Notes under the pieces: model-generated | Databases searched by the model: none | Told to the model about the DNA's origin: nothing | The model's input: the letters and a program-made list of their open reading frames with translations, nothing else | Source: an uncultured Acidobacteriota bacterium | GTDB taxonomy: Bacteria; Acidobacteriota; Vicinamibacteria; Fen-336 | DNA: 64,000 nucleotides | Direction: 5' to 3' | NCBI GenBank assembly: GCA_963700695.1 | Contig: CAVOYO010000003.1 | Coordinates: 61,180-125,179 of the forward strand | In this document: positions 3,467 to 64,000 of the stretch, one piece after another | How positions within the stretch are numbered: position 1 is the first letter of the stretch | Layout of the letters: every line of letters starts with the position of its first letter | Made by a program: the position numbers and the translations under genes

Positions 3467-3482
3467 CGGGAGGGGTGCCTCT

Positions 3483-6834: not shown

Positions 6835-7135
6835 CGACCTGACACGCGAGCCCCTCGCTATCCCTCCCCACGTGGGGAGGGGAAGCTTGACGATCAGGCC
6901 TCGCGACACCCGCGTGTCCTCACGACACGCGGGCGACGCAAGGCCTGGTGGCCAGCCGCATCTCGTTGCACGGCCCCCCAGCGTATCCCTCCCCACGTAG
7001 GTAGGGGGGACGCGAAGTCGAGCTTGCGAGACGAGCGTCGACTCCCGAGTGTAAGTCGCGACGCGCAAGCGTCGCCTCCTATTCCTCTGCCCCCACCCTG
7101 TCCCTCTCCGCGTAGGGCCCCTACGGGCGCGTGCT
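6835..7135 (+). repeat. intergenic modular repeat cluster, locus 1 (X unit + Y unit + degenerate tail)
   Basis: Contains the 20-bp palindrome CCCTCCCCACGTGGGGAGGG (6862-6881), a CGCGTGTC...GACACGCG hairpin, GGCCTGGTGGCCAG, a second TATCCCTCCCCACGTAGG head, GTCGAGCTTGCGAGACGAGCGTCGAC and the hairpin GCGACGC-GCAA-GCGTCGC (7058-7075). Near-identical modules recur at 25.5, 28.6, 33.8 and 49.7-50.1 kb. Confidence 0.9.
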
Positions 7136-7187: not shown

Positions 7188-7262
7188 GCGCCCGTAGCTC
7201 AATGGTAGAGCGAGAGCCTTTTAAGCTCGAGGTTGTAGGTTCGAGTCCTACCGGGCGCACCA
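7188..7262 (+). tRNA. tRNA-Lys (anticodon UUU)
   Basis: GCGCCCG TA GCTC AATGGTA GAGC G AGAGC CTTTTAA GCTCG AGGTT GTAGG TTCGAGT CCTAC CGGGCGC A CCA folds as a cloverleaf; 75 nt, encoded CCA. Confidence 0.9.
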
Positions 7263-24299: not shown

Positions 24300-25423
24300 C
24301 CGACTCTCCCTTTGCCGGGAAGGTGGTCCTCGCCCCCCTGACCGTCGGGGGCAACCTGCCCTTCCGGCGTCTGTGCGTCGAGCTGGGGGCACAGGTCACC
24401 GTCGGTGAGATGGCGATGGTCCGCAAGCTCCTCTCCGGGAGCCCGAGTGAGTTCGCCCTCCTCAAGAGCCACCCCGACGAGGGCTTCTTCGGTGTGCAGC
24501 TCGCGGATCGAAAGGAGGACAGCCTGGCCGAGGGCGCCCGGATCGCCGAGTCGCGAGGGGCGCGCTTCATCGACCTGAACTGCGGCTGCCCCATCCACGA
24601 GATCACGCGCCGAGGCCTCGGCGCCAGCCTCCTCCGCAAGCCGACGAAGCTGGGTCGGCTGGTGGACGCGTTGAAGAAGGCGGTCTCCGTTCCTGTGACC
24701 GTCAAGCTGCGCACCGGCTGGAGAGAGGGGAAGGAGAACGTCTCGGAGGTGGCACGGGTCTGCGAGGAGAGCGGGGCCGACGCCATCACCCTGCACGCGC
24801 GCAGCCGCGAGCAGCGCTACAACCGCGCGGCGGACTGGGACCTCATCGGCCGGGTCGCGGCGGAGCGCGGGGTCCCCGTCATCGGGAACGGCGACATCCT
24901 CACCCACTACGAGGCCCGGGAGCGGATGACACGCTCGGGCGTGGGCTCGGTGATGCTGGCCCGGGGCGCCCTGATCAAGCCCTGGCTCTTCCGGGAGGTG
25001 AGGACGGGCCAGGCCTGGGAGCCCACGGGCGAAGAGCGCCTGCAGGTGCTCTGGCGACTGGTCGAGCTGCTTCGCGAGCATTTCGGTGAGGACGAGCGCG
25101 GGCGCAGACGCGCCATGCGCTTCCTCCCCTGGCACATGAACTTCTTTTGTCGCTACCGTCCCCTTCCCGAGGATCAATACGCGGAGAAGTCCCGACTCCA
25201 CCCGCTGCTGCAGTCGCGCCTCGAAGCGGGAAAGCCCGCGACACCGCTGGAACGTCTCCTGGCCGACACGAGGCCCGAGACGCACCAGCGGATCGCCGAA
25301 GAGCTCATGGCCTCCGCGACGGGGGACGAGGCATTGGCGCGAGCGCAGCAGCTCGCAGCGTCACTCCCCCCGGACACCACCGAGAGGACCCTCGACGTCG
25401 CGGCCAGGGAGGTCGCGGGCTGA
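24296..25423 (+). CDS. tRNA-dihydrouridine synthase
   Basis: Intact 375 aa; VVLAPLTVGGNLPFRRLCVELGA..., FIDLNCGCPIHEITRRGLGASLL, VTVKLRTGW, ITLHARSREQRY, VIGNGDI; ATGA overlap with the upstream stop. Confidence 0.88.
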   Translation: MTDSPFAGKVVLAPLTVGGNLPFRRLCVELGAQVTVGEMAMVRKLLSGSPSEFALLKSHPDEGFFGVQLADRKEDSLAEGARIAESRGARFIDLNCGCPIHEITRRGLGASLLRKPTKLGRLVDALKKAVSVPVTVKLRTGWREGKENVSEVARVCEESGADAITLHARSREQRYNRAADWDLIGRVAAERGVPVIGNGDILTHYEARERMTRSGVGSVMLARGALIKPWLFREVRTGQAWEPTGEERLQVLWRLVELLREHFGEDERGRRRAMRFLPWHMNFFCRYRPLPEDQYAEKSRLHPLLQSRLEAGKPATPLERLLADTRPETHQRIAEELMASATGDEALARAQQLAASLPPDTTERTLDVAAREVAG

Positions 25424-25454: not shown

Positions 25455-25600
25455 GTTCATCGACCCCCCACCCTATCCCTCCCCACGTGGGGAGGGGAAC
25501 GCCTTGAGATAGGCCCCGTACGCCCTTGTGTCCCCAAGGAGGGGACACGAGGGCGAGTCTGGGCCTGGTGGCCAGTCGCACTCATTACCATAGACCCCCG
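25455..25600 (+). repeat. intergenic modular repeat, locus 2 (single X unit)
   Basis: TTCATCGACCCCCCACCCTATCCCTCCCCACGTGGGGAGGGGAA-GCCTTGAGATAGGCC-hairpin CTTGTGTCCCC/AAGGA/GGGGACACGAG (25525-25551)-GGGCCTGGTGGCCAGTCGCA. Confidence 0.9.
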
Positions 25601-25698
25601 CCTTCCCTCCTCCCGGGGCTCGCTCGGCTTGAAACGCCCGTGACGACGGCGTACGCTGGCCGACAGCGAACCCCAACAAACCAAGGAGACTGGCGGCC

Positions 25699-28596: not shown

Positions 28597-28607
28597 GGGC
28601 GGATTCT

Positions 28608-28800
28608 ACTTGTTCATTGACCCCCCACCCTATCCCTCCCCACGTAGGGGCGGAAAAGGCCGGACAGAGGCCTTGGACATCCGCGTGTCCCCAGGGAAGG
28701 GACACGCGGGCGAGCTGGGCTGGTGACCAGACGCACATGTTCATCGACCCCCATTGTCCCCACGGAAGGGACAGGCGGGCGGCGGAGGGTCTGATGGCCG
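28608..28800 (+). repeat. intergenic modular repeat, locus 3 (X unit + degenerate second unit)
   Basis: TTCATTGACCCCCCACCCTATCCCTCCCCACGTAGGGG..., hairpin CGCGTGTCCC/CAGGGAA/GGGACACGCG (28682-28708), CTGGTGACCAGACGCA, then a second TTCATCGACCCCC head with a decayed hairpin. Begins 12 nt from the glpK start codon. Confidence 0.88.
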
Positions 28801-33178: not shown

Positions 33179-33739
33179 ATGGCCGAGCCCGTCTTCACCG
33201 TCGCCAACCAGCTCACGATGCTGCGGATGGCGTTGGTGCCGCTGCTGGTCCTGCTCGCCCTCGGGCGCCAGTTCACCTGGGCGTTGGTCGTGTTCGTGGT
33301 GGCCGGGCTCACCGATGCCCTCGACGGCTACATCGCCCGCCACGGCCACCAGATCACCAAGCTCGGGGCGACCCTCGACCCCATCGCGGACAAGATCATG
33401 GTGGGCTCGACCTACGCGGTTCTGACGTGGAGCTCGGCGGTGGTCTGCCCGATGCCGATCTGGCTGACCGTCACGCTCCTCTTCCGCGACACCATGCTGG
33501 TGGTGGGCGTCCTCGCCGTGAACCTGACCGTGGGGCCCCGGGTGTTCTATCCCTCGCGGTTCGGGAAGGCCTCGAGCGCCCTCAACATGGTCGCGGGCGG
33601 CGCCGCGCTGGCGGTCAACGCCGCGGGAGACTGCCTTCCGGCCATGCGCTGGCTCTACGTCGCCACCCTGGCCGTGTTGATCGCCTCGACCGCTCAGTAC
33701 ATCTACAGCGCCAGCGAGAGGCCTCCGAAGAAGCGCTAG
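33179..33739 (+). CDS. pgsA: CDP-alcohol phosphatidyltransferase (phosphatidylglycerophosphate synthase-like)
   Basis: MAEPVFTVANQLTMLRMALVPLL...; motif DALDGYIARHGHQITKLGATLDPIADK (DGxxAR...G...D...D); multi-TM; an alternative TTG start at 33149 is possible. Confidence 0.85.
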   Translation: MAEPVFTVANQLTMLRMALVPLLVLLALGRQFTWALVVFVVAGLTDALDGYIARHGHQITKLGATLDPIADKIMVGSTYAVLTWSSAVVCPMPIWLTVTLLFRDTMLVVGVLAVNLTVGPRVFYPSRFGKASSALNMVAGGAALAVNAAGDCLPAMRWLYVATLAVLIASTAQYIYSASERPPKKR

Positions 33740-33756
33740 CTGCCAGGGAGCGGAAG

Positions 33757-33960
33757 CCAGGCCTAGGCTCGCCCGCGTGTCCCTTCCCTGGGGACACGCG
33801 GGTGCGCGGGGCCCATCTCAAGGCCTTTCCCGGCCTGTCGGAGGCGACGCTCGCGCGTCGCAGCGTACTCTCGGGGTCGACGCTCGTCTCGCGAGCTCGA
33901 CTTCGCGTCCCCCGAGCCCCTACGTGGGGAGGGATAGGGTGGGGGGTCATTGAACGATTG
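33757..33960 (-). repeat. intergenic modular repeat, locus 4 (inverted orientation: Y unit + X tail)
   Basis: The reverse complement reads TTCAATGACCCCCCACCCTATCCCTCCCCACGTAGGGG...GTCGAGCTCGCGAGACGAGCGTCGAC...GCGACGC-GCGA-GCGTCGC (33844-33861)...CGCGTGTCCCCAGGGAAGGGACACGCG... Confidence 0.9.
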
Positions 33961-34016
33961 TGGCCGCCGAGCCGCAAGGCTTCGGCCCCGCGCACGCGGG
34001 TTCGGCCGACAGGACG

Positions 34017-34971
34017 CTAGAGAGGCGAGCTGTCGGGGATCCCGAGCTTCTCCCGGAAGTAGATCACGGTCCGCCTCAGGCCTTCGTCCAGCGGGACCCG
34101 AGGCTCCCACTCGAGGATGGCGCGGGCGCGGGCGATGTCGGGTTGACGGACCCTGGGGTCGTCGACGGGCAGGGGTCGCTCCACGATCCCCGACGACGAG
34201 CCGGTGAGGCCGATGACCCTCTCCGCGAGAGAGCGAATCGACATCTCCGCCGGATTTCCGAGGTTCACGGGCGTGGCGGTGTCCGACATCATGAGGCGAA
34301 CGATCCCCTCGACGAGGTCGGACACGTAGCAGAGGCTCCGGGTCTGGCTGCCGTCACCGAAGACAGTGACGTCCTGTCCCCGCAGGGCCTGGCTCATGAA
34401 CGCGGGAATGGCGCGGCCGTCGTCGACTCTCATCCGCGGGCCGTAGGTGTTGAAGATCCGCACGATGCGGGTCTCGATGAGATGGACGCGGTGATAGGCC
34501 ATCGTGAGGGCCTCGGCAAAGCGCTTGGCCTCGTCGTAGACGCCGCGCGGGCCGACCGGGTTGACGTTCCCCCAGTAGTCCTCCCGTTGCGGGTGAACGA
34601 GAGGGTCCCCGTAGACCTCGGAGGTCGAGGCGAGCAGGAAGCGTGCTCGCTTGGCCTTGGCCAGCCCCAGGCAGTTGTGGGTGCCGAGGCTGCCGACCTT
34701 CAGGGTCTGGATCGGGAGCTTCAGGTAGTCGATCGGGGAGGCCGGGCTCGCGAAGTGGAAGATGTAGTCGAGCGGGCCCTCGATCGCGATGTAGTCGGTG
34801 ACGTTGTGCCGGACGAAGACGAAGTCGCGGCCCGTGAGGTGGGCGATGTTGTCCACGTCCCCGGTGACGAGGTTGTCCATCCCGATGACCGAGAAGATCA
34901 CGCTCGAGGAGGGCCTCGCAGAGGTGCGAGCCGATGAAGCCGGCGGCACCGGTGACCAGGGCTCGTGGCAT
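34017..34971 (-). CDS. UDP-glucuronate decarboxylase (UDP-xylose synthase)-type NAD-dependent epimerase/dehydratase (one frameshift near 34900)
   Basis: [19 protein letters not shown] / [16 protein letters not shown]..., [69 protein letters not shown]. Confidence 0.85.
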
Positions 34972-36430: not shown

Positions 36431-37530
36431 TCGGGGAATCTGCCGTTCAGAGCGCGCTCCACGAGGCGCCGGACGCGGGTCTCGAAGACCTCGCGGCGGT
36501 GGGCCTCGGCCCGGGCCCGGAGCGTCAGTCTATCAAAGGGGGTAGAAGCGAGGGTAGCGAGAGCGGCGCGGAGCGCGGGCGCGGTGGGGTCGGAGAACAC
36601 GACCCCGGTGCGACCGTCCTGCACGCTCTCCGGGCCGCCTCCTTCCCCGTAGACGACCGCGGGCCGGCCACAGGCCATCGCCTCGAGGGGGACGATGCCG
36701 AAGTCCTCGACCCCGGGCATGAGAACCGCCCGGCAACCCCGGTACTGCTCGCGGAGCTCCGAGTCGTCGACCCGCCCGAGGAAGGAGACTTCGGGAGGGG
36801 CGAGGGCGCGGAGGCGGGCCTCTTCGGGTCCGGTTCCCACGATGCGCAGCGGCCACCCGGTGCCACGGTAGGCCTCGAGCGCGAGCTCGAGCCGCTTGTA
36901 GGGCGCGAGGGCGGACACCACGAGATCGTATGTGCCGGGTCGATCGGGGCCGGGCGTGAAGTGGTCGGTGTCGACCGGAGGAGGGATGACCTCTGCCTCC
37001 CGCCCGTAGTAGCGCCGAATGCGGTCGGCGACGTAGGCGCTGTTGGCGGCAAAGTGGTGGACGCGGGCGGCGGACGCCGTGTCCCAGGCGCGCAGACCGG
37101 CGGCGGCGGGGGGTATGGCCAGGCGACCGAGGAGACCCAGACGCCCGGAGCCGAAGTAGTCGTCGTAGCGGTCCCACACGTAGCGCATCGGCGTGTGGCA
37201 GTAGCAGAGGTGGAGCGCTCCCCGACCCGGCCGGACTCCCTTCGCCACGCAGTGGGAGCTCGAGAGGACGAGATCGAACCCACGCAGGTCGAATCGCTCG
37301 GCGGCGAAGGGGAAGAGGGGGAGGTAGTGGCGGTAGCGACGTGCGGAAGCCGGGAGGCCTTGCACGAAGGAGGTGCGGATCTCCCGCGCCTCGAGCTCCG
37401 GGTCCACCGAGCCCTCGACGTGGAGGAGGGTGAAGATGGGTGCGTCGGGGTAGAGCCGGGCGAGCGAGAGAAGGACCTTCTCGCCACCCCGCATCCCGGT
37501 GAGCCAGTCGTGAACGAGCGCGACCCTCAG
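36424..37530 (-). CDS. glycosyltransferase family 4 (GT-B, RfaG-like)
   Basis: (L)RVALVHDWLTGMRGGEKVLLSLARLYPDAPIFTL..., EDFGIVPLEAMACGRPAVV. The conserved N-terminus extends upstream of ATG 37494, so the true start (possibly CTG 37530, overlapping the upstream stop) is uncertain. Confidence 0.8.
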   Translation of the reverse strand: MRVALVHDWLTGMRGGEKVLLSLARLYPDAPIFTLLHVEGSVDPELEAREIRTSFVQGLPASARRYRHYLPLFPFAAERFDLRGFDLVLSSSHCVAKGVRPGRGALHLCYCHTPMRYVWDRYDDYFGSGRLGLLGRLAIPPAAAGLRAWDTASAARVHHFAANSAYVADRIRRYYGREAEVIPPPVDTDHFTPGPDRPGTYDLVVSALAPYKRLELALEAYRGTGWPLRIVGTGPEEARLRALAPPEVSFLGRVDDSELREQYRGCRAVLMPGVEDFGIVPLEAMACGRPAVVYGEGGGPESVQDGRTGVVFSDPTAPALRAALATLASTPFDRLTLRARAEAHRREVFETRVRRLVERALNGRFPEC

Positions 37531-38675
37531 CGCGCGGGCTCCGCGAGGGCGGGGACGGGTCGGCCCAGCGCCTTCAGGTAGCCGGCGTGGATCGCGCGGA
37601 CCGAGCGCTCCCAGCTGAAGGCCCGGGCGCGGGCGCGCCCCTTCTCGATGAGCTGCTCGCGGAGGTCGTCGTCGTCGAGGACCGCCGCGATCCCGGCCGC
37701 GATGTCCTCCACGCGATAGGGATCCACGAGCAGGGCGGCATCGGCCACGACCTCGGGCAGCGAGGACATGCGGGAGGTGACGACCGGCGTGCCGCAGGAC
37801 ATCGCCTCGAGAGGGGGGAGACCGAAGCCTTCGTAGAGCGAGGGGAAGGCGAACACCGACGCCATGCGGTAGAGGGCGGCGAGGGTGCGGGGGGGAACGA
37901 AACCGAAGAAGCGAACGTCCTGTCGAAGGCCGGTGGACTCGACCGCGCGGCGCAGCGCGCCGTACTTGCTCACGTCGTCGCCGATGAGCAGGAGCTGGAG
38001 GTCCTCGTGCCCGCCCTGCTCACGCACGAGGGCGAAGGCGCGGATCAGTCGCTCGAGGTTCTTGTGCGGCTTCACGTTGCCGGCGAAGAGCACGAAGCGC
38101 CCGTGGATCTGGTAGCGCTCCCTCACGCGTGCCATCTCCTCCTCGCCCGGGTCCTCGAGCAGCTCGCTGTCGATCGCGTTCGGCACCACGTGCACCTTGT
38201 CGGGATCGGCCCACGAGTAGAAGCGGAGGATGTCGGACCGCGAGGCCTCCGAGACCGTGAAGACCACCGCGCTGTGGCGGATGGCGCTGCCCATCATGTA
38301 CCGGGCGTAGCGCCACGCCATCCGGTTGGGAAGGTACTGGGGAAACAGAAGGTGGATGCAGTCGTGGATCGTGACCACCGACGGGATCGTGCACAGAAGC
38401 GGACGCACGTAGTGCGGCGAGTGCAGCAGCTCCGCCCCCAGCCGCTTCAGCTTGAGCGGGATCGACAGGTGCTCGCGCACACCGTATCCCGCCGAGCTGT
38501 CGACGACGGGGACGAAGTTCTCGGCCAGGTCGCGCAGGGTGGCTTCGTCGGCGTCGTGGCAGAACAGGAAATACGTGGTCTCGTGATCGAGCCGGGCCAG
38601 GTGGCGCACGAGGTTTCGGACGTACGTGCCGATCCCGAAATCCCGCCACTTTCGCACGTCGACTGCAATCTTCAC
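37527..38675 (-). CDS. glycosyltransferase family 4
   Basis: GTG start; VKIAVDVRKWRDFGIGTYVRNLVRHLA..., FAFPSLYEGFGLPPLEAMSCGTPVVTS (EX7E-type motif); intact. Confidence 0.85.
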   Translation of the reverse strand: MKIAVDVRKWRDFGIGTYVRNLVRHLARLDHETTYFLFCHDADEATLRDLAENFVPVVDSSAGYGVREHLSIPLKLKRLGAELLHSPHYVRPLLCTIPSVVTIHDCIHLLFPQYLPNRMAWRYARYMMGSAIRHSAVVFTVSEASRSDILRFYSWADPDKVHVVPNAIDSELLEDPGEEEMARVRERYQIHGRFVLFAGNVKPHKNLERLIRAFALVREQGGHEDLQLLLIGDDVSKYGALRRAVESTGLRQDVRFFGFVPPRTLAALYRMASVFAFPSLYEGFGLPPLEAMSCGTPVVTSRMSSLPEVVADAALLVDPYRVEDIAAGIAAVLDDDDLREQLIEKGRARARAFSWERSVRAIHAGYLKALGRPVPALAEPAR

Positions 38676-38776
38676 TGGCGCTCTGCCTGTTCCGACAAAT
38701 CCCCGCGTGACAATAACATGAGGAGACGGACGGACCCAAGCGAGGGACGGCCGGGGAAGGGGCGTGGCCCGAGCGG

Positions 38777-39685
38777 TCAGCCGCGACCGAGGGCCAGTCG
38801 GCCCAGCGCCCAGGCCTCCTCCCGGCCGGCCTCGTCCGCGGACAGGGCGCCTCGGGCGAGCCCGACGAAGGCCCGTCCGAGAAGGAAGAGTCGAAGCCCC
38901 CCGCGGGCGAGGGGACCGTTGTGCTTCCGGTAGTAGAGGAGATGGCTCCGGTGATACTCCAGCCGGGCCCGCTCCGGGGCGCGCGCCATGCTCTGTCCGA
39001 GCTGGTGGCGGATCCTGGCGGCCGGGGTGAAGATCACTCGCCAGCCCGCACCCCGCAAGCGACGGCACAGATCGGCGTCCTCCTCGTAGAGGAAGAAGCC
39101 CTCGTCGAAGCCTCCCACTGCCTCGAGGGCCTCTCGACGGGCCATGAGGCACGCACCGGACACCCAGCCGGGCTCGTGCTCGCGGGCGTGACGGTCCTCC
39201 GCTTCGCGGAGCGCCTCGGGGACGCCACGCCGAACGCCTCGCACGAGCCGCCGCTGCCCCCGCTCGCTCGACGGGGTGAGGTCGGGCCCGGTGGACACCT
39301 GGATCGTGCCGTCCGGGTCGCGGGTGAGCGGTCCCACCGCCCCGACATCGGCGTCGGCGTCCAGCCGGGCGGCCAGGATCTCGACCGCGCCCGCGGTCAC
39401 GGTGGCGTCGGGATTGAGGAAGAGGACATGGGGCGCGGTCGTGGCCCGCACGCCCTGGTTGCACGCGCGAGCGAACCCGACGTTCACGGGGTTGGCGATC
39501 ACCCGCACCTCGGGGTTTCGGGCGCCGACCGCCGCGGGCGAGCCGTCTTCGCTGGCGTTGTCGACCACGACGGTCTCGAACACTACGCCGACGTAGCGAG
39601 CGAGGGAGTCGAGACAGGCGACCAGGGCCTCCCGCGCGTTGAAGGACACGATCACGACGGCAACGGACGGGGGCGACGGGCTCAC
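38777..39685 (-). CDS. glycosyltransferase family 2
   Basis: VAVVIVSFNAREALVACLDSL...VVVDNASEDGS..., LFLNPDATV, GACLMARREALEAVGGFDEGFFLYEEDADLCRRL. The GTG at 39685 gives a GTGA overlap with the upstream stop; the longer ORF to 39730 is also possible. Confidence 0.85.
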   Translation of the reverse strand: MSPSPPSVAVVIVSFNAREALVACLDSLARYVGVVFETVVVDNASEDGSPAAVGARNPEVRVIANPVNVGFARACNQGVRATTAPHVLFLNPDATVTAGAVEILAARLDADADVGAVGPLTRDPDGTIQVSTGPDLTPSSERGQRRLVRGVRRGVPEALREAEDRHAREHEPGWVSGACLMARREALEAVGGFDEGFFLYEEDADLCRRLRGAGWRVIFTPAARIRHQLGQSMARAPERARLEYHRSHLLYYRKHNGPLARGGLRLFLLGRAFVGLARGALSADEAGREEAWALGRLALGRG

Positions 39686-40803
39686 GGCCGGGCCGCCCCG
39701 AGGCACGCCGCCCGCGTGAGGGCGGCACATCGGTCCCAGGAGTAGCGACCGGCGAGATCGTGACCGGCGACGATCAACCGCTCGCGAAGGTCGGTCTCAC
39801 TCAGCACTCGATCGAGGGCGCTCGCCACCGCCGACTCGTTGCGGGGGGCAACGGTGAGAGCAGCGCCTCCGAAGATCTCTCCGAGGGAAGGCGGCCGGGC
39901 AACGACGAGGGGAACGCCACGCGAAGCGGCCTCGAGGGCGGGCAGCCCGAAGCCCTCGTACTCGGAGAGAAAGACCGCGGCATCGGCGGCGGCGTAGCGA
40001 TCGGCCAGACCGGCCTCGTCCACGAAGCCGGAAAGGCGCACGCGGTCCGTGAGGCCGACTGAGGCGACCAGGGCAGGGAGGTCGAGCGGGGGGTGGGTCC
40101 GGTTGTCGCCGACGACGTCGAGGAGCAGTCCAGAGTGACGTCGGGCGAGGCGGGCCATGGCCCGCAGGAGCACGGGCAGGCAGCGCCGGTTGAGGACGGA
40201 GCCGACCGTGATGACGTACGGCCCGGAGAGCCCCAGACGCCGGCGAGCCTCCTCCCGGGGAGGTGGCACCGGCAGGTCGTCGTCGGGTCCGAGGGGCGCG
40301 AGCGTCACGCGGTCGGCGGCGGACGGGAAGCGCCGAACGATCTCGCGGCGCGTGAAGTCCGAATTGGTGAGGACGGCCCGGGAGGCGTGGATGCTGAGGC
40401 TCACGAGCAGCCGACGGCGCAGCCCATCCTGGTACGAGAAGTCCTGGGGCTGAAAGAAGAAGGAGAGGTCGTGCACCATCGTGACGCGAGGGGTGCGGAG
40501 CGACAGGGGACACACGTAGGCGGGGGAGAAGAAGACGTCGGGGTGATCGGCGCGGGCGATGGGGGGAAGGCTCCGCTCGAGCCAGACGAGGCCGCGCGCG
40601 CGACCGTCGCCCACGGGACGGCGTTCGATCGCGGTGTGATCCAGTACCGGATCTTCCGGGGGGGACCCGCTGAAGTAGACGAGCAGCCTGTCGCCCGTCT
40701 CGCGCCAGCGGCGCAGGAGATTTCGGAGATAGCGGCCGGTGCCGGTGGGCTGGCCCTGAAGCTCCCGGCCGTCGATGCCGACGACGAGCGGCCTATCGTC
40801 CAA
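39682..40803 (-). CDS. glycosyltransferase family 4
   Basis: TTG start; LDDRPLVVGIDGRELQGQPTGTGRYLRNLLRRW..., VFLSEYEGFGLPALEAASRGVPLVV; intact; overlaps the upstream gene by 11 nt. Confidence 0.82.
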   Translation of the reverse strand: MDDRPLVVGIDGRELQGQPTGTGRYLRNLLRRWRETGDRLLVYFSGSPPEDPVLDHTAIERRPVGDGRARGLVWLERSLPPIARADHPDVFFSPAYVCPLSLRTPRVTMVHDLSFFFQPQDFSYQDGLRRRLLVSLSIHASRAVLTNSDFTRREIVRRFPSAADRVTLAPLGPDDDLPVPPPREEARRRLGLSGPYVITVGSVLNRRCLPVLLRAMARLARRHSGLLLDVVGDNRTHPPLDLPALVASVGLTDRVRLSGFVDEAGLADRYAAADAAVFLSEYEGFGLPALEAASRGVPLVVARPPSLGEIFGGAALTVAPRNESAVASALDRVLSETDLRERLIVAGHDLAGRYSWDRCAALTRAACLGAARP

Positions 40804-41908
40804 GGACCGTGCGATAGAAGGCGATCGTCCGCTGGGCCGTGTCCTGCCAGTCGAAGCGCTGGCTGCGCTCGAGGCCCCGCCTCCTCGAGGCCTCGGCCAG
40901 AGCCGGGTCGTCGAGAAGGCGCTCGATCGCCTGGGTGAGGGCGCCCACGTCGCCGGGATCGACCAGAGTCGCAGCGTCGCCCGCGACCTCCTCGAGCGCG
41001 GAGCCACGCGAGCAGACCACGGGGAGCCCGGCCGCCATGGCCTCGACTACCGGGAGGCCGAAGCCCTCCTCGAGCGAGGGGAGGACGAGAAGGCCGGAGG
41101 CGGCCATCAGGGCGCGGATGTCGTCTCGGGCAAGATAGCCGGTGGCGCGGATCTGGGGGCCGACCCGATCGCCCCCCTGGGCCCACGAGGACCCGGGGCC
41201 GGCCAGGACGAGAGGAGGAACGTCTCGGCGGCGCCGGGCCAGATTGAGGTAGGCCATCACCAGGGACACCAGGTTCTTCCGCTTCTCGTCGCTGCCGACG
41301 TAGAGGATGGCTCCCCGGGGGAGCCGGAGGCGATTCAGCGTGGCCGCGACCTGCGGCTCCGGCGGCACCTCACGGAAGAAGGGGTCCACGCCGAGGGGGG
41401 TCACCGCGATCTTCTCGGGCGGGATCCCGAGGAGGGTCTGGGCCTCCCGCGCGGTGAACTGGGAGACGCAGAGGATCCCGTCGGCCTCACGGGCGTGCTC
41501 CCGCACCAGGTCCACGTAGTCGCGCCGTATCTCCGCCCCCGTCATCTCCGGGTGCTTCAGGAAGAACAGGTCGTGGATCGTGAGGATGCGGCGGGCGCGA
41601 CGGGCGGGGATCAGGAGGGGGTGGGGGGAGTGGACGAGATCGAGGGGAGCGCCGACCAGACGGTCGAGGCTGGGCCAGCCGAGGCGGTTCCACGCGAGAT
41701 TGAGCCCCCCGACCGGGAAGCGGCGGTCCACGAGGTGGACGTTCGTCGGCCAGATTCGGGCGGGGTAGCGCTCCTTGAGCGAGGCCGAGAAGTAATAGAA
41801 GGTGTCGTCGAGCGCGAGGGCGGGCAGGCGATCGAGCAGGCCGAGCACGTAGCTCCCCACCCCGGTCGGTTGGGCGAGCGAAGGCCGCACATCGAGTCCG
41901 AACTTCAT
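40793..41908 (-). CDS. glycosyltransferase family 4
   Basis: MKFGLDVRPSLAQPTGVGSYVLGLLDRL..., LVLPSLEEGFGLPVVEAMAAGLPVVCS; intact; ATG 41908 preferred over the upstream 42004. Confidence 0.82.
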   Translation of the reverse strand: MKFGLDVRPSLAQPTGVGSYVLGLLDRLPALALDDTFYYFSASLKERYPARIWPTNVHLVDRRFPVGGLNLAWNRLGWPSLDRLVGAPLDLVHSPHPLLIPARRARRILTIHDLFFLKHPEMTGAEIRRDYVDLVREHAREADGILCVSQFTAREAQTLLGIPPEKIAVTPLGVDPFFREVPPEPQVAATLNRLRLPRGAILYVGSDEKRKNLVSLVMAYLNLARRRRDVPPLVLAGPGSSWAQGGDRVGPQIRATGYLARDDIRALMAASGLLVLPSLEEGFGLPVVEAMAAGLPVVCSRGSALEEVAGDAATLVDPGDVGALTQAIERLLDDPALAEASRRRGLERSQRFDWQDTAQRTIAFYRTVLGR

Positions 41909-49673: not shown

Positions 49674-49707
49674 TGGCCTGAACGCTGAGCTGACGGCGTT
49701 CAGGCCA
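49674..49707 (+). terminator. 12-bp perfect stem hairpin TGGCCTGAACGC-(10 nt)-GCGTTCAGGCCA directly after the udg stop
   Basis: Read directly; starts 1 nt after TAG 49671-49673; no U-tract, so function as an intrinsic terminator is uncertain. Confidence 0.35.
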
Positions 49708-49721
49708 CGGTCATCCCTCGA

Positions 49722-50075
49722 TCATTCATCGACCCCCCACCCCAACCCTCCCCACGTAGGGGGAGGGGAAGGCTTGAGATAGGCCATGGACACCTGCGTG
49801 TCCCCAGGGAAGGGACACGCAGGCGAAGCCTGGCCTGGTGGCCAGTCGCAGTTGAACCATGCCCCCCAGCGTATCCCTCCCCACGTAGGGGGCTCGGGGG
49901 ACGCGACGTCGAGCTTGCGAGACGAGCGTCGACCCCGAGTGTACGCCGCGACGCGTAAGCGTCGCCTCCGACAGGCCGGGAAGGCTTGAGATAGGCCACG
50001 GACACCCGCGTGTCCCCGGGGAGAGGACACGCGGGCGAGGCCTGGCCTGGTGGCCGGTCGCACTTGTTCATCGAC
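49722..50075 (+). repeat. intergenic modular repeat cluster, locus 5 (X + Y + X units, bounded by TTCATCGACC)
   Basis: Largest and best-preserved copy: head ATTCATCGACCCCCCACC...CCCTCCCCACGTAGGGGGAGGGG, GGCTTGAGATAGGCC (twice), hairpins at 49793-49823 and 50005-50035, GCCTGGCCTGGTGGCC(A/G)GTCGCA (twice), Y unit with GCGACGC-GTAA-GCGTCGC (49948-49965); ends ...CACTTGTTCATCGACC. Confidence 0.92.
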
Positions 50076-50326
50076 CCGGAGAACAGAAACGTCGCGGCGC
50101 TGGGCGCGCCAGGGGCCCGCGGAGCGGGGCGTGGAGCCCCCCTCCCTCAGTGAAATGTCCGTGGCGCGTGGGGGGCGATTCGAGCGAGGGAGGGCGCTGC
50201 TTAAAGTTGAAAGGGCAACGCCCGACCGAGCGTCCCCGCGGAGCGGGCCCCTGAAGCGGCCTCTCCCGCGTCGTCCTGGGCATCGGGGGACCTGTGGATG
50301 CGCATGGGCACGCTAGAGTAGCGGGC

Positions 50327-56251: not shown

Positions 56252-56328
56252 CGGGATGTAGCGCAGCCTGGTAGCGCACCTGCTTGGGGTGCAGGTGGTC
56301 GCCGGTTCAAATCCGGCCATCCCGACCA
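56252..56328 (+). tRNA. tRNA-Pro (anticodon GGG)
   Basis: CGGGATG TA GCGC AGCCTGGTA GCGC A CCTGC TTGGGGT GCAGG TGGTC GCCGG TTCAAAT CCGGC CATCCCG A CCA. Confidence 0.9.
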
Positions 56329-56386: not shown

Positions 56387-57269
56387 ATGACCGAACCGCT
56401 CATCCTGGTGACCAACGACGACGGCGTGCGAGCCCGGGGGATGCCGATCCTCGCGAATGCGCTCGCGAGCAGGCGCAGACGTGCACGACGTGGCCCCGGA
56501 TCAGGAGCAGAGCGCCACCTCTCACTCCGAATCGGCGCTCTCACTCGCTGAACATCAAGGATCCGCTTCGCGCGCAGCGGATCGAACCGCAGGTCCACGC
56601 GGTGAACGGCACCCCCGCGGACTGCGTCCATCTCGCCATGATCGAGCTGCTGCCGAGACGGCCCGACCTCGTGGTCTCTGGCATCAACGCAGGGACCCAA
56701 CCTCGCCGACGACATCTACCGCTCCGGTACGGTGGCGGGCGCCCGCGAGCGGCGGTTCTACGGCGTGCACGCGATCGCGATCCTCGTTCGCCGCCCGTGA
56801 CGGGGAGCGACTTGAGCCATGCCGCCGAATTCGCGCGGAGGCTCTCCGCCCGCGTACTCGCGGACGGACTGCCTGGCGGAGCTTCCTGAACGTGAACGTT
56901 CCCGCCGGGTCCGCCGGACGGAGTCCACTGACCGTCCAGTGGCAGCCCTCGCACGCAGCCGGGCCCGTCGAAGGCCCCGGGAACCCGGGTGCGGGCTACT
57001 ACTGGGCCGACGAGGACCGGCACCGGTGGGAGAGCGACGCCCCCTCGGATCGGGGCGTCATCAGCAGCGGCCGGATCTCGGTGACGCTCATCCAGACCGA
57101 CTGCACCAACCACCGGTTGACGGACAGGCTGCAGGGCTGGGCCCGGGACCTGAATGGAGCGGCCCGGGAGGGGCAGCCGACAGGCGGCTGGCGCCGAAGA
57201 GCGCTGAGAGCGCGGTTGGAGCGTCCCGGCGCGCGTGGTGTAGAATTGGGTCCTTCGCTCGGGGCGTAG
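56387..57269 (+). CDS. surE: 5'/3'-nucleotidase SurE (multiple frame changes; 3' end uncertain and, as drawn, touches the next tRNA)
   Basis: MTEPLILVTNDDGVRARG... / VAPDQEQSATSHS / VNGTPADCVHLAMIELLPRRPDLVVSGINAG / SGTVAGAREAA-like / GRISVTLIQTDCT in different + frames. Confidence 0.75.
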
Positions 57270-57336
57270 CGCAGCCTGGTAGCGCGCTTGGTTCGGGACC
57301 AAGAGGTCCGGAGTTCAAATCTCCGCGCCCCGACCA
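57260..57336 (+). tRNA. tRNA-Pro (anticodon CGG)
   Basis: CGGGGCG TA GCGC AGCCTGGTA GCGC G CTTGG TTCGGGA CCAAG AGGTC CGGAG TTCAAAT CTCCG CGCCCCG A CCA. Confidence 0.9.
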
Positions 57337-57505: not shown

Positions 57506-59657
57506 ATGAAGGTGGCCATCGTCTACAACCGGAACAGCCAGAACGTCATCAACCTCTTCGGCATGCCGAACCGCGAGAAGATCGGCATGAAGACCATCGG
57601 CCGCCTCGCCGATGCGCTCCGCAAGGGCGGTCATCAGGTGGTCGCCTTCGAGGGCGACAAGGATCTGATCGAGAAGCTCGAGGATTTCATGCCGCGGGTC
57701 GTGCAGGGAGAACGCCCGGGCATGGTCTTCAACGTGTCCTACGGTCTGCAAGGCCAGGCGCGCTACACGCACGTGCCGAGCATCCTGGAGATGGTGGGCA
57801 TCCCGTATGTGGCCTCGGGGCCGATGGGGCACTCGTTGTCCCTCGACAAGGTCGTGACGAAGATGATCCTCAAGCAGCACGGCCTTCCCACGCCGAACTT
57901 CACGGTGATGCACGCCCCGGATGCCCCGGTCTCCGGGCTCGCCTATCCGATGATCGTCAAGCCCCGGAACGAAGCGGTGTCGTTCGGGCTCAAGGTGGTC
58001 CACGACGAGGGCGAGCTGCGCGAGGCGGCCCGGGTGATCTTCGACGAATACAAGCAGCCGGTCCTCGTCGAGCAGTTCATCGAAGGCCGGGAGATCAACG
58101 TCGGCCTCCTCGGGAACAACCCCCCGGAGGCGTTTCCGCCGGTGGAGCTGGGATTCGGCGATGGCCCCTCGGTCTATAGCTACGAGGACAAGACCGGTCG
58201 AAGCGGACGGGTCATCGAGCACATCTGCCCGGCGCCGATCGGGGAGGAGATCAGCCGCCGGGCCCAGGAGATTGCGATCGGGGCCTTCCAGGCCCTCGGG
58301 TTGCAGGACTGCGCCCGTGTCGACATGCGCCTCGAGGGGGAGGGAAGCCTCTACGTCCTCGAGACCAACAGCCTCCCGAGCCTGGCCGAGCGCGGCTCCT
58401 ATCTCGTCGGGGCGGCTCATTTGGGCCTCGACTTCACGTCGTTCGTCAACCGCCTGGTCGAGGTCGCGAGCGCCCGCTACTTCGGTACTCCCGAACCGCC
58501 GGTCCTCGACGCCCGCCGGGTCGACACGCGCTCCCACGCGGTGGGCTTCGTGACCCAGCGCCGGGAGGTGATCGAGCGCCGGCTCCGGGACTGGGTGGCG
58601 GTGTCGAGCCCCACCTCGGACCCCGTGGGGATCCAGCAGGCGGTCGCGCGCGCCACCGCCCTCTTCGACGATCTGGGCATGAAGGCGGTGGGGCCCCTCA
58701 CCGACCCGCCCCACGCATGGACCTGGGAGACTCAGGCTGGCCTGGATGGCGGCATCCTGCTCGTGGCCCACGTGGACGTCACCGCGGTGGCCTCGACCCC
58801 ACACCAGCCCTTCCGCCGTGAGCCGGAGTGGCTCCACGGCGAGGGTATCGGGAGCTCTCGGGCCCCGCTGGTCATGATCGAGTTCGCACTGCGAGCGCTC
58901 CGTAGCATCCGGCGCCTGCGCAGACTGCCCCTGGGTGTCCTGCTGTACGCGGATGAAGGTCGGGATGCCCGCGACAGCGCAGAGGCGATCCGGACGGCGG
59001 CGGGCCGAGCAAAGCGGGTGATCGTCCTGCGGCCGGGTCTGCCCGACGAGGGCGTCGTCTTGCAGCGGCGCGGCAACCGCCGCTTTCACCTCCGCGTGGC
59101 GGGCGTGGCAGTCAGCCTGGGGCGAGCCGCGCGACAGAAGGGCGTGCTCCGGTGGACGTGGGACCGCCTGGAGGCGATCTCGCAGCTCGGCTCGTCAAGA
59201 AGCCGGGTCTCGGTGTCGGTGCTGGTCGATCGGGACCGAGCGCCACCCCACGCGCCTCCCGCACCGGGTGACGGCGACGCTCCTCATGACCTACCCGGAC
59301 CCGAAGACGGCCGACCGGACCGAGGAGCGGATGCGGACCCTGCTGGGCAAGCGCGGCCCGAGGTGGGAGCTTGTCCGCGAGGCCGACCGCCCCCCCATGC
59401 GCGAGCGCCCAATCAACACACGGCTCTACGGCGCGCTGGCCGCCGTGGCCACGGACCATGGCCTGAAGCTCAAGAAGGACAGCTCGGCCTGGGCCTCGGT
59501 GGCCGGACTGGTGCCGGCGAAGACGGCGGCTGTGTGCGGCTTCGGTCCCACGACGAAAGAGCGGGGCAAGCCCCAGGAGGCGGTCTCGCGGATCGCCCTC
59601 ATCCAGCACACCCTCATCCTGGCGGATTTCCTCGCTCGCGAGCTCGAGCAGAGGTAG
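57506..59657 (+). CDS. ATP-grasp (D-Ala-D-Ala ligase-like) / M20-peptidase-like fusion protein, paralog 1 (one frameshift near 59233)
   Basis: N-terminal about 330 aa: MKVAIVYNRNS..., MIVKPRNEAVSFGLKVV, LVEQFIEGREINVGLLGN, LYVLETNSLPSL (E-x-N Mg site). C-terminal about 380 aa: ILLVAHVDV (HxD), WLHGEGIGSSRAPL, VLLYADEG, and after the frame change MTYPDPKTADRTEERMRTLLG...CGFGPTTKERGKPQEAVSRIALIQHTLILADFL. Confidence 0.75.
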
Positions 59658-62202: not shown

Positions 62203-64000
62203 TGGCCAGGCAGTCCTGCCGGCGGCGCGCTCGAGATCCGAACGAGGTACTGTGCGAGCAGCAGCGTGTGTTGGAGGAGGCTGGTTCGGTGCACCGCCTC
62301 GTGCGGGGTGTGCAGGTCGCGCGCCAGGGGGGCCAGGCCGCACACGACCCCCGCCTCCTCCGGGACGAGTCCCGCGACCGAAGGGGAGGCTGAGCTCTCC
62401 TGAATCAGCGGGATCTCCCAGGCCTCGGCCACATCCGCCAGCTCCTGCGCCAGCTGGGCGTTGCGCCTGCGCTCGAGCATCGGTGGCCGGTCGGAGACCA
62501 GGTGGAGCTGCCAGGGCGGTCCGCCCTTGCCCAGGAGGCCGCGGATCTTCGCCTCCGTCTCGTCCGCGGTGTGGGACTCCGGGTAGCTGACGAGGACGCG
62601 CGCCCTGACCCGGTGGGGCAGCAGATCGGGAAAGCGCGTCGTCTCGAAGCTGACCGTGAACACCTCCAGGCGGTCCTTGCGCGACGCCAGCTCCGCCATC
62701 GCCTCGACCCTGTTGCAGGCCCACCGCAAGACATCCGTCCTCTTCGCGGCCTGGCCGAGACCGGCGGGCTTGCCCTCGACCACGAGCTGGTAGGTGCGGA
62801 GGCCCCGGCGGCGGGTGATGATCTTCCCGCTCGGCGAGCCCGGCTGGAGCACGAGGACCCTCTTGACGCGGGAGGCGGCCCGAACGATGAGGTCGCGGCT
62901 GAAACGGCACGCCCGAGCCTCGTCGGCGTAGACGAGCACTCCGATCCGCTGGTGGTGGAGCCGCTTCTGATGGCGCAACGACCGCAGCGCGAACTCCAGC
63001 ATCGCCAGCGGCGCGCGGGAGGCGCCGATGGCCTCGCCGTACAGCCACTCCGGGTCTCGCCGGAACGCCTGGAAGGGGACCTCGTCGCCGAGCAGCATGT
63101 CGAGGTGGGCGATCAAGAGGGTGCCACCCTCCATCCCCTTGGCGGTCTCCCAGGTCGAGACGATGTGCTCGTCCGACAGGTCCTTGACGGGCTGGAGGCC
63201 CATCTCGCGGTAGCGGTCGGCCAGGTTGCGCTCCAGCGCCCGGATGCCGATCGTGTCGTCGGTGCGGCTGGAGAGCGAGACCAGGTCCGAGACACGACGC
63301 TCGATCTGGTCGCGGCGGGATGTCAGGAACTGGAACGCGGTCTGCGCCGGAGAGGCGTCCCTGCCGCTGATCGGAGCGGGCGAGGGCGTCCCGAAGTAGC
63401 GGGCGCTCGCGACCTCCACGAGACGGTTGACCAGGGCCGGGAAGTCGAGGCCGGCTTGCTGCGCCCCGATGACGAAGGAGCCGCGGTAGCCGAGGCTGGG
63501 CAGGCTGTTGAGCTCCAGCAGATAGAGGTTGCCCTCGGGGTCGAGCCGCACGTCGACGCGCGCGCAGTCATAGCATCCGAGCGCGGTGAAGGCTCGGCGT
63601 GCGAGGTCCTGGGCCCGGGCGGTGGTCGCCTCGTCGAGGTCCGCCGGGCACAGGTAGCCGACCGTCCGTCCCGAGCGCCCTCCCTTGTCGTCGTTGGAGT
63701 AGATGTTCGGGCCCCCGGAGAAGTCCAGCTCCACGGGTGGAAAGGCCTCGGGCGGATTGCCCAGGACGCCGACGTTGATCTCGCGCCCGTCGATGAAGCG
63801 CTCCACGAGGACCGGCTCCTCGAACTCCTTGAAGATGACGTCGGTCGCCGCTCTCAGCTCCTCCTCGTCCCGAACGACCTTCAGCCCGAAGGAGTCCGCC
63901 CCGCTCTTGGGCTTGACGATCAGCGGGAAGGGCAGGTCGGGGGTCTCGAAGCCAGGCGCGTGCACGACCGTGAAGTCGGGGGTCGGCAGGCCCGCCTGCT
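62199..64000 (-). CDS. ATP-grasp (Ddl-like) / M20-peptidase-like fusion protein, paralog 2 (N-terminus beyond window edge)
   Basis: Homology to paralog 1 continues to the window edge (QAGLPTPDFTVMHAPGF...). LIVKPKSGADSFGLKVV, LVERFIDGREINVGVLGNPPEAFPPVEL, LYLLELNSLPSL, NRLVEVASARYFGTP, LLIAHLDM, WLYGEAIGASRAPL, VLVYADEA, CGLAPLARDLHTPHEAVHRTSLLQHTLLLAQYL. Confidence 0.78.
   Translation of the reverse strand, partial: QAGLPTPDFTVVHAPGFETPDLPFPLIVKPKSGADSFGLKVVRDEEELRAATDVIFKEFEEPVLVERFIDGREINVGVLGNPPEAFPPVELDFSGGPNIYSNDDKGGRSGRTVGYLCPADLDEATTARAQDLARRAFTALGCYDCARVDVRLDPEGNLYLLELNSLPSLGYRGSFVIGAQQAGLDFPALVNRLVEVASARYFGTPSPAPISGRDASPAQTAFQFLTSRRDQIERRVSDLVSLSSRTDDTIGIRALERNLADRYREMGLQPVKDLSDEHIVSTWETAKGMEGGTLLIAHLDMLLGDEVPFQAFRRDPEWLYGEAIGASRAPLAMLEFALRSLRHQKRLHHQRIGVLVYADEARACRFSRDLIVRAASRVKRVLVLQPGSPSGKIITRRRGLRTYQLVVEGKPAGLGQAAKRTDVLRWACNRVEAMAELASRKDRLEVFTVSFETTRFPDLLPHRVRARVLVSYPESHTADETEAKIRGLLGKGGPPWQLHLVSDRPPMLERRRNAQLAQELADVAEAWEIPLIQESSASPSVAGLVPEEAGVVCGLAPLARDLHTPHEAVHRTSLLQHTLLLAQYLVRISSAPPAGLPGQ

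Follow-up and report, generated by a model that had tools for sequence, protein, structure and literature searches.

Five intergenic spacers in a 64,000-nucleotide (nt) stretch of contig CAVOYO010000003.1 from a bacterium of the Vicinamibacteria (Acidobacteriota), referred to as the window in the following, hold head-to-tail arrays that are built from the same sequence modules. The repeat family to which these arrays belong is real, structured and multicopy, occurs in many genomes and is apparently an undescribed family of structured intergenic repeats. On balance, the five loci are probably arrays of lineage-specific, non-coding, GC-rich and hairpin-forming intergenic repeats of Vicinamibacteria-type Acidobacteriota, which constitute non-autonomous mobile DNA and are co-transcribed with their neighbours. 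The original prediction, made from the letters of the window, had proposed a modular, multi-hairpin intergenic repeat family at five loci, and both the family and all five loci with their modules could be verified. In a mechanical repeat search of the window, these loci emerged as the top direct and inverted families (D1, D2, D4, D5 and I3-I12), and the counts of their modules exceed chance. The head core CCCTCCCCACGTRGGG has 11 matches at up to two mismatches compared to 0.33 expected, a number reached in none of 100 shuffles, while the tail of module X, GCCTGGTGGCCAGTCGCA, is matched five times (0.18 expected) and TTCATCGACCCCC eight times (3.1 expected), with six of these eight matches lying within the loci. 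Chance similarity or an assembly artefact would be the trivial explanation, to which the GC content of about 70% throughout the window and its apparent frameshift-type errors would lend themselves. Chance, however, is rejected by the shuffle controls and the same units recur in independent assemblies from many samples, by which this explanation is refuted and its probability is practically nil.

Extents and composition of the arrays were taken from profile searches built on the window copies, which yielded no copies beyond the five arrays. In every array, all parts lie on one strand, and four of the five (a small number) are found on the G-rich plus strand. The arrays and their neighbours, the latter assigned by Pfam and a tRNA scan, are as follows.

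6852-7083, plus strand: locus 1, X+Y (degenerate head+X, head+Y, partial head); purA (plus strand, stop at 6822) on the left, tRNA-Lys (plus strand, 7188-7262) on the right
25456-25582, plus strand: locus 2, X (head+X, then a degenerate partial head); dus (plus strand, stop at 25423) on the left, a PALP/CBS gene (plus strand, start at 25699) on the right
28613-28800, plus strand: locus 3, head+X and the 3′ half of a second X (truncated unit); glycerol kinase gene glpK (minus strand, start at 28596) on the left, a DUF3187 gene (minus strand, stop at 28817) on the right
33747-33959, minus strand: locus 4, Y+X (one head+Y+X unit); a CDP-alcohol phosphatidyltransferase gene (plus strand, stop at 33739) on the left, an epimerase gene (minus strand, stop at 34017) on the right
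49725-50065, plus strand: locus 5, X+Y+X (head+X, head+Y+X, then TTCATCGACCC); a uracil-DNA glycosylase (UDG) family gene (plus strand, stop at 49673) on the left, priA (plus strand, start at 50294) on the right

Coverage of the spacers by the arrays amounts to 57-87%, and the statement that the clusters fill nearly the whole spacer thus went too far. At loci 2 and 5, the remainder of the spacer holds an apparent native hairpin or promoter, such as the TTGAAA-17-TACGCT box before the CBS gene of locus 2, which is conserved in relatives. The lack of coding capacity stated in the original prediction is consistent with the alignment: copies of X differ by insertions and deletions of 1, 2 and 6 nt, and Pfam domains are confined to the flanking genes.

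Alignment of the copies revealed that all units open with a common head of about 45 nt, TTCATCGA-CCCCCC-A-CCC-TAT-CCC-T-CCCC-ACGT(A)G-GGGGAGGGG. Its last two C-runs form the 5′ arm and GGGGAGGG the 3′ arm of an 8-bp GC hairpin with the tetranucleotide GTAG inside the loop (CCCTCCCC-ACGTAG-GGGGAGGG). In head+X units of about 130 nt, this head is followed by the X body, in which a 6-bp stem TAGGCC/GGCCTG encloses a 13-bp hairpin (CCGCGTGTCCCC...GGGGACACGCGG) ahead of the tail GGTGGCCAGTCGCA. Head+Y+X units of about 225 nt additionally carry a Y body of about 95 nt between ...CACGTAGGGG and GGGAAGGCTTGAG; Y thus lies within the 3′ arm of the head hairpin and precedes X. Two hairpins make up the Y body itself, a long imperfect one and GCGACGC-GNNA-GCGTCGC, and the pentanucleotide TTCAT is constant at every unit junction. 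Hence, the modular concatenation of X and Y had been recognised correctly, whereas their description as two parallel units has to be revised, since both share the head and Y sits between head and X, as in the unit at 33747-33959. Similarly, the GNRA tetraloop assigned to the Y hairpin holds for three of the four known Y copies (GCAA, GUAA and GCGA), the fourth having GCCA instead.

Single units fold far more stably than dinucleotide shuffles on both strands, with z-scores of -4.1 to -5.5. In a comparison of 16 X bodies, taken from the window and 10 further contigs, pairing in the central X hairpin reaches 94%, 7 of its 13 base pairs display changes on both sides, and the observed covariation was not reached in any of 500 shuffles. 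For the outer stem of Y, a copy from another metagenome-assembled genome (MAG) displays CCGCGGG/CCCGCGG in place of CUCGGGG/CCCCGAG, a comparison of four copies made by eye in which RNAalifold paired the columns differently. Other pairings did not hold. A long-range stem predicted to close the head+X unit through the end pairings CGAC/GTCG and CCACC/GGTGG was rejected, as changes in the tail are never compensated in the head among 12 units. The small hairpin CTGGCC-TGGT-GGCCAG found no support, while one pair is compensated in the competing stem TAGGCC/GGCCTG. Stable folds, the covarying hairpin, GNRA-type tetraloops in three of four Y copies and the position of X/Y arrays behind stop codons could also be expected if the units were small structured RNA genes, i.e. 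many paralogous copies of either independent small RNAs or processed RNAs derived from 3′ untranslated regions (UTRs). Such genes are improbable, though: both strands fold equally well without a G-U strand bias, no match to an Rfam family was obtained even at E≤10, and loci 2 and 5 show no promoter- or terminator-like signals. Moreover, the units occur in both orientations relative to their neighbours, and modules that are shuffled, truncated and tandemly repeated fit DNA repeats better than genes.

The head would be capable of forming a G-quadruplex (G4) on its opposite strand, or an i-motif. In reverse complement, the head reads CCCCTCCCCC-TACGT-GGGGAGGG-ATA-GGG-T-GGGGGG-TCGATGAA, and the G-strand sequence GGGGAGGGATAGGGTGGGGGG, which is present in four heads of the window, is a canonical G4 motif with four runs of at least three G and loops of 1, 3 and 1 nt. 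Y-type and degenerate heads are devoid of the fourth run. Four of the five short-loop G4 motifs in the window, counted on both strands, come from heads. A complementary C-tract precedes the G-runs and can lock the first two of them into a hairpin; in ViennaRNA calculations with G4 energies, the quadruplex is predicted as part of the minimum free energy fold of the head G-strand. Across 17 distinct heads, which had been selected by the hairpin part only and not by the C-run part compared, the two free C-runs exhibit 0.22 substitutions per site in contrast to 4.25 in the loops and 4.0 in the TTCATCGA leader (Fisher p=4e-8). The individual units with these features are listed below.

6852-6962, plus strand: locus 1, unit 1; degenerate head without TTCATCGACC, hairpin CCCTCCCCACGTGGGGAGGG at 6862-6881, X body at 6879-6962 with central hairpin at about 6908-6935
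6963-7083, plus strand: locus 1, unit 2; Y-type head (CCCCCCAGCGTATCCCTCCCCACGT, 6976-6998) and Y body with long hairpin at 7017-7042 and GCGACGC-GCAA-GCGTCGC at 7058-7075
7087-7122, plus strand: locus 1, third head, degenerate and partial (TTCCTCTGCCCCCACCCTGTCCCTCTCCGCGTAGGG); array end, 65 nt before tRNA-Lys
25456-25582, plus strand: locus 2, head+X unit; head at 25456-25499, minus-strand G4 motif at 25464-25484, X central hairpin at about 25522-25554
25583-25620, plus strand: locus 2, closing degenerate partial head (CTCATTACCATAGACCCCCGCCTTCCCTCCTCCCGGGG)
28613-28738, plus strand: locus 3, head+X unit; G4 motif at 28621-28641 on the minus strand (glpK sense)
28740-28800, plus strand: locus 3, remnant of a second unit; TTCATCGACCCCC and, immediately adjoining, the 3′ half of an X body
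33747-33959, minus strand: locus 4, head+Y+X unit; head+Y at 33959-33835, X body at 33830-33747, plus-strand G4 motif at 33926-33946
49725-49853, plus strand: locus 5, unit 1, head+X; minus-strand G4 motif at 49733-49753, X hairpin at about 49792-49824
49856-50065, plus strand: locus 5, unit 2; Y-type head and Y body at 49856-49974 with GUAA hairpin at 49948-49965, X body at 49978-50065
50067-50077, plus strand: locus 5, terminal TTCATCGACCC; start of one more head, array end

Regarding their surroundings, the unit of locus 2 is flanked by the dus stop codon (25423) and by what resembles a promoter region of the PALP/CBS gene, the locus 3 head in reverse complement ends 16 nt before the glpK ATG (28596), and the unit of locus 4 sits between convergent stop codons (33737-33739 and 34017-34019).

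Members of the family were also found well beyond the window, whose glycerol kinase has relatives labelled Acidobacteria or Vicinamibacteria by their sources. The MAG 'Acidobacteria bacterium ALSabin.176' contains full X units (87% identity over 127 nt) as well as a Y body, and a full X unit is also present in sediment and soil contigs. A scan of a genome collection with a 16-nt pattern was poorly specific, with only about 30 family members among the at least 104 matches listed, most of which are due to chance; among these matches, heads of more than 90% identity occur in at least 10 further MAGs of Acidobacteriota or Vicinamibacteria. In a metagenome collection, a specific 27-nt head pattern was found in at least 120 soil and sediment contigs. 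Altogether, 161 head copies were gathered; as the metagenome sample was mostly selected by the exact head pattern, the invariance of the head in it is given by construction. The plasmid collection and the viral contigs searched gave no match to the family.

Outside the lineage of the window, the dominant form is a short unit of 71 nt, called S, in which the head is followed by AACGCTG, about 12 variable nt, GGCTCCGC and another 3-5 nt. S units occur singly, in tandem with a period of 71-74 nt or with a partial head behind them. In one public sample, each of two runs contains more than 30 contig pieces of S units, tandem joints included; the runs with S-unit words in common consist of contigs that carry no direction. 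RNAalifold gave no usable consensus for 126 S units. A further body type consists of GATACATCGGAATGCG, with the hairpin CCGAT-AC-ATCGG in it, and follows immediately on the initial 27 nt of the head (TTCATCGACCCCCCACCCTATCCCTCC). This body type, at times without a complete unit nearby, was found in the following places.

L209, 219-260: GATACATCGGAATGCG body type
L207, 1246-1290: GATACATCGGAATGCG body type
L160, 1001-1040: GATACATCGGAATGCG body type
L112, L210 and L214: GATACATCGGAATGCG body type

The scan in which heads were selected by the hairpin part only also caught a head-like design in contigs of Alphaproteobacteria (Rhodobacterales, Devosia and another; L014, L017, L018, L042, L057, L063, L079 and L085), namely CCCCCCACCCC-N3-CCCCTCCCCACGTGGGG(G)AGGGG, which comprises four C-runs and the hairpin with other loops and flanks. 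Judged from these sequences, the likeness to the acidobacterial head may reflect shared descent, transfer or convergence. The shared head, its G4-capable strand, the much wider distribution of the family and the commoner 71-nt form with its position at start codons had all escaped the original prediction.

Like the window arrays, copies elsewhere are intergenic, although the short S form can take in a neighbouring start codon. No insertion sequence (IS) or transposase stood beside the few neighbourhoods checked by Pfam, and the sequence between inverted S copies in L146 and L148 holds housekeeping genes (glpX; znuA; an ABC-transporter ATPase gene, probably znuC) and no transposase. The orientation of the copies relative to genes is non-random and depends on the body type. 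With flanks classed by a GC-frame heuristic, which is imperfect and miscalled window locus 5 (corrected via Pfam), 58 of 75 classified S arrays have their TTCATC end beside the start of an opposite-strand gene (p=2e-6), and co-directional cases comprise 41 with the G-strand as sense strand versus 9 (p=6e-6). The remaining 17 of the 75 S arrays lie behind a stop codon with the C-strand as sense strand. In G-sense cases, the upstream stop codon is found 0-7 nt from one unit end. An S unit fills the stop-to-start gap exactly and often even supplies the ATG, the start codon being either the ATG in the reverse complement of TTCAT or an ATG 4 nt beyond. Within S heads, TAGGGT stands 9 nt ahead of the ATG. 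These start codons are backed by Pfam, as the domain begins within residues 2-16 in eight of nine tested proteins with a start at the element edge (PurN, B12-binding domain, TGT, PurE, ABC-3, CoaX, methylmalonyl-CoA mutase and L23); GlpX likewise has a Pfam domain supporting a start codon at the element edge. In two organisms, an S unit separates rplD, which was identified through the L4 motif WRQKGTGRAR, from rplW (L217, about 3684-3790; L223, about 3853-3960), and must therefore be part of the operon transcript. The heads of these two copies match also outside the 27 nt forced by the pattern, while their bodies have diverged; by this comparison, the rplD-rplW copy is old, inherited and transcribed within an essential operon. 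For X/Y arrays, by contrast, the TTCATC end follows a stop codon in 12 of 14 cases, which makes the C-strand the sense strand, and most of them lie between convergent genes. Accordingly, window loci 1, 2, 4 and 5 are C-strand sense and only locus 3, directly before glpK, is G-strand sense. Since orientation depends on the body type, transcription should matter, be it through selection on the RNA or through selection on tolerance.

These orientation rules do not fit a symmetric DNA site. It is therefore quite unlikely, even more so than for small RNA genes, that the heads serve as sites for a dimeric DNA-binding protein, either a global regulator or a nucleoid protein, with the bodies being incidental. 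REP/BIME elements bind IHF, gyrase and Pol I, CCCTCCCCACGTGGGGAGGG is a perfect 20-bp palindrome in two window copies (6862-6881 and 25477-25496), and many copies adjoin gene starts or lie in divergent spacers, all of which would suit such a role. Most copies, however, carry the asymmetric loop ACGTAG instead of CACGTG, with a freely varying fifth loop base, and the C-runs, which are not palindromic, are conserved as well. Nor would an orientation bias be expected of a palindromic operator, and copies are also located between convergent stops and inside operons.

A more serious, yet still rather doubtful alternative regards the head as a selected cis-regulatory switch between hairpin and G4 (or i-motif) located 5′ of start codons, and not as selfish DNA. 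The head would bring along a G-rich, Shine-Dalgarno-like tract and often the ATG, and would set translation or transcription downstream, whereas X/Y arrays would be a derived 3′-end version. Several of the results given above point in this direction: the canonical G4 motif GGGGAGGGATAGGGTGGGGGG, the share of heads among the short-loop motifs of the window and the preference of ViennaRNA for the quadruplex, the conservation of C-runs relative to loops in the 17 heads, the recurrence of four C-runs with a CACGTG hairpin and other loops in Alphaproteobacteria, the G-strand sense position of 58 of 75 S arrays directly before start codons, with Pfam-backed starts at the element edge, and the two rplD-rplW copies that share the head and differ in the body. 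In addition, RNA G4s in 5′UTRs are reported to enhance translation in E. coli (PMC11087576). On the other hand, the neighbouring genes are functionally unrelated, the corresponding site is empty in close relatives, the C-strand is sense behind a stop in 17 of 75 S arrays and in most X/Y arrays, Y-type and degenerate heads have no fourth run, and head invariance in most of the metagenome sample is a product of exact-pattern selection. The switch and the mobile-DNA readings are not mutually exclusive. A combined version, with the head as a portable hairpin/G4 switch whose design recurs in two phyla and which spread as a small mobile unit between stop and start, would likewise be a long shot.

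Mobility of the units is suggested by orthologous sites. At locus 3, relatives L225-L227 (GlpK 83-85% identical) are empty, with a 20-25-nt spacer TAG-ACxCGC-TACAAT-N8-ATG, and so is L230 (96% identical), which reads TAG CCCTCGTTC TTCGT TAGAAT CCGGGTCC ATG. L229 (95% identical), in contrast, contains head+X followed by head+Y+X, i.e. the architecture of window locus 5. Locus 3 of the window equals this L229 array minus about 145 nt between GACCCCC and TGTCCCC, and by this alignment its remnant at 28740-28800 is the leftover of a head+Y+X unit that is intact in L229. Its ends read GGATTCTA/CTTGTTCATTGACC...GAGCCGC/GAACGAGGG. Locus 4 is empty in L231, L232 and L233 (94, 94 and 90% identical), where the gap between the genes measures -4 to 36 nt as opposed to 277 nt in the window and the stop codons either overlap (CTAG) or stand 26-36 nt apart. 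In L231, the convergent genes share a single CTAG as overlapping stops (744-747), while in the window each end of the spacer bears a CTAG (33736-33739 and 34017-34020). For locus 2, L225 has overlapping dus and CBS genes. S units possess ATGA-type repeats at both ends, which coincide with stop and start codons. As relatives with 90-96% identical flanking proteins are empty at loci 3 and 4, the comparison indicates that arrays come or go as blocks within the time in which strains diverge, and that tandem duplication and internal deletion reshape them.

The spacer of locus 3 has further peculiarities. In all relatives, glpK is preceded by TA(C/G)AAT at a distance of 6-8 nt from the ATG, without a Shine-Dalgarno sequence, at these positions:

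window, 28597-28612: TA(C/G)AAT site before glpK
L225, 3981-4000: TA(C/G)AAT site before glpK
L227, 3981-4000: TA(C/G)AAT site before glpK
L226, 3976-4000: TA(C/G)AAT site before glpK
L230, about 89-116: TA(C/G)AAT site before glpK

From its sequence, this site looks like the -10 box of a leaderless or near-leaderless mRNA, and the window array was added just upstream of it. In L228 (GlpK 88% identical), the DUF3187-glpK spacer holds an unrelated GC-rich hairpin sequence of 56 nt (3429-3498; CACGCCGCCGG...GGTGGCGTG...), and it seems that this spacer attracts insertions of different kinds.

Among known families, the behaviour of the repeats is closest to that of REP/BIME, mosaic extragenic hairpins in and behind operons, although membership is not demonstrable. 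Like REP, BIME and REPIN elements, which are associated with RAYT, an IS200/IS605-like Y1 transposase, the units are short, GC-rich, extragenic multicopy hairpins with a lineage-specific sequence; they form mosaic clusters of few modules (here head, X, Y, S and Z in several combinations), lie behind stop codons and inside operons, and have hairpins kept by compensatory change. They differ from REP by the absence of GTAG or GTGG at the palindrome foot, the X hairpin being preceded by GTAC or GGAC, and by their greater length (71-225 nt) with a non-palindromic C-run tract at the start. In contrast to BIMEs and REPINs, the units are arranged as direct repeats from head to tail, and parts on both strands were encountered in only 2 of 89 arrays checked for orientation. 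With no GTAG tag, no alternating orientation and no terminal inverted repeats, the proposed resemblance to REP/BIME or MITEs does not extend to membership. RAYT-like 'TIRYT' genes have been described in Koribacter, Terriglobus, Acidobacterium and Granulicella, where they are reported to be flanked by repeats sharing GGGGWSAS (Di Nocera et al. 2013, PMC3733652). These belong to the same phylum and to other classes, and the X arm GGGGACAC fits GGGGWSAS; this fit to the motif is a lead only, since a degenerate 8-nt motif is weak evidence at 70% GC. No TIRYT gene was seen in the window and the related loci.

MITEs such as Correia/NEMIS of Neisseria, ERIC and RUP/BOX share a size of 70-350 nt, the non-coding, intergenic nature, insertion polymorphism between strains and co-transcription with neighbours, some of them supplying promoters, processing sites or start-proximal sequence. 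The present units differ in having neither terminal inverted repeats, nor a consistent target-site duplication, nor a related autonomous IS, and tandem head-to-tail arrays are their rule. IS200/IS605-derived PATEs may resemble them in having no inverted termini and no duplication (here at one well-resolved site), in the subterminal hairpin, here 21 nt from the left end, and in the TTCAT at every junction, as would be expected for insertion 3′ of a fixed target. Identical left and right junction sequences are atypical of PATEs, however, and no TnpA/TnpB partner was found in the sequence at hand. Bacterial 5′ G4 motifs reported from Deinococcus, Paracoccus and E. coli reporters also consist of four short-loop sense G-runs upstream of start codons (PMC11087576), and have a nearby complementary C-tract able to compete as a hairpin; the head motif, in contrast to such single-gene features, belongs to a repeated and movable unit of which hundreds of nearly identical copies exist.

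In Rfam, no family match was obtained at the gathering score or at E≤10, only four tRNAs in the window reached the gathering score, and the best match in locus 5 scored 19 bits against a threshold of 70. Together with the searchable literature, which gave no description of the family even in searches for the sequence itself, this agrees with the original prediction, in which the family had not been recognised. Other candidates were rejected: intrinsic terminators, as loci 2 and 5, the two loci scanned, contain no hairpin followed by a T-run and no sigma-70-like promoter either; a CRISPR array, because the units abut without unique spacers; and integron attC sites, because GTTCATC does not fit GTTRRRY and the neighbours are housekeeping genes. 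What sets the family apart is the combination of one head shared by exchangeable bodies, arrays of strictly direct units that close with a partial head, a G4-capable head with runs conserved across genera, and the exact stop-to-start fit of S units with the start codon inside the repeat.

Based on these data, the units would be non-autonomous mobile DNA that settles without damage in the minimal gaps between genes and is moved in trans. As the best guess for the moving activity, a hairpin-recognising, single-strand HUH/Y1 enzyme (RAYT/TIRYT or IS200/IS605-like) can be named, albeit tentatively. It would fit better than a DDE transposase because of the missing inverted termini, the subterminal hairpin, the constant TTCAT junctions, the absence of a duplication at locus 3 and the hairpins maintained by compensation; this step is rated low since the search for a RAYT-like gene in the available 1.5 Mb gave none. 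Once inserted, the units would be co-transcribed with neighbouring genes, with X/Y arrays acting as clusters of 3′ hairpins behind stops in RNA 3′-end protection or pausing, and the head possibly acting as a structural switch from hairpin to G4/i-motif and back.

A number of results weigh against mobile, co-transcribed DNA. Neither of the termini TTCATCGACC... and ...GTCGCA repeats the other in inverted form. In the only resolved pair of empty and filled sites, that of locus 3, no clear target duplication is visible, and the filled site lacks 5 nt of the empty site. The end repeats at locus 4 (CTAG) and of S units (ATGA-type) could be target duplications or just stop and start codons, and presence or absence of arrays could mean precise loss instead of gain. 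For a RAYT partner, which the original prediction had brought into play, tblastn with an E. coli RAYT sequence gave nothing at E<1 in the window and 1.47 Mb of related loci. With regard to transcription, G-U and A-C mismatches in the X hairpin number 5 against 9 without strand preference, so that RNA-level selection is not demonstrated, and the orientation counts depend on the imperfect classing of flanks mentioned above. Finally, no sequencing run, from isolate or RNA, contained more than 27% of the window's words, from which it follows that the organism is uncultured.

Some observations concern the surroundings of the arrays. Two stand-alone hairpins, one of 11 bp right after the UDG stop and before the locus 5 array (49682-49713, GGCCTGAACGC...GCGTTCAGGCC) and one between the epimerase stop and the locus 4 array (33966-33992, GCCGAGCC-GCAA-GGCTTCGGC), do not belong to the repeats and may be 3′ hairpins of the genes themselves. 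Next to locus 1, purA is split over two frames (5514-6479, Pfam positions 1-150; 6085-6822, positions 187 onward), and upstream of locus 2 one long open reading frame (ORF; 22373-25423) joins an ABC transporter with truncated ATPase domain in frame to dus. The window thus probably carries indel errors or real frameshifts, and homopolymer or run lengths in single repeat copies may be off by one. Elsewhere in the window, an inverted similarity of 620 nt (71-73%) links two long ORFs on opposite strands (57873-58492 and 63384-64000), and a 55-nt motif occurs four times inside a run of minus-strand ORFs (36655-41069); both look like paralogous coding sequence and not like the repeat family. Two tRNA-Pro genes (56252-56328 and 57260-57336, anticodons GGG and CGG) share a strand at a distance of 1 kb.

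Vicinamibacteria-type Acidobacteria are among the most abundant soil bacteria, and to our knowledge almost nothing is known about their non-coding DNA. The family described here appears to be a counterpart of the enterobacterial REP/BIME on a different plan, with direct units, a common head and interchangeable bodies. In practical terms, the family accounts for assembly breaks in intergenic regions of these genomes, provides a marker for strain-level variation and calls for caution among annotators, as repeats give rise to false ORFs and start codons may lie inside a repeat. At the same time, one G4-capable module recurs at gene starts, at gene ends and inside operons, which amounts to hundreds of natural experiments, making the debated role of G4s in bacteria testable. 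If the head were indeed a portable switch, translation or transcription of hundreds of unrelated genes, ribosomal-protein operons included, would have been rewired by it, and the family would represent a mobile cis-regulatory module and not junk DNA.

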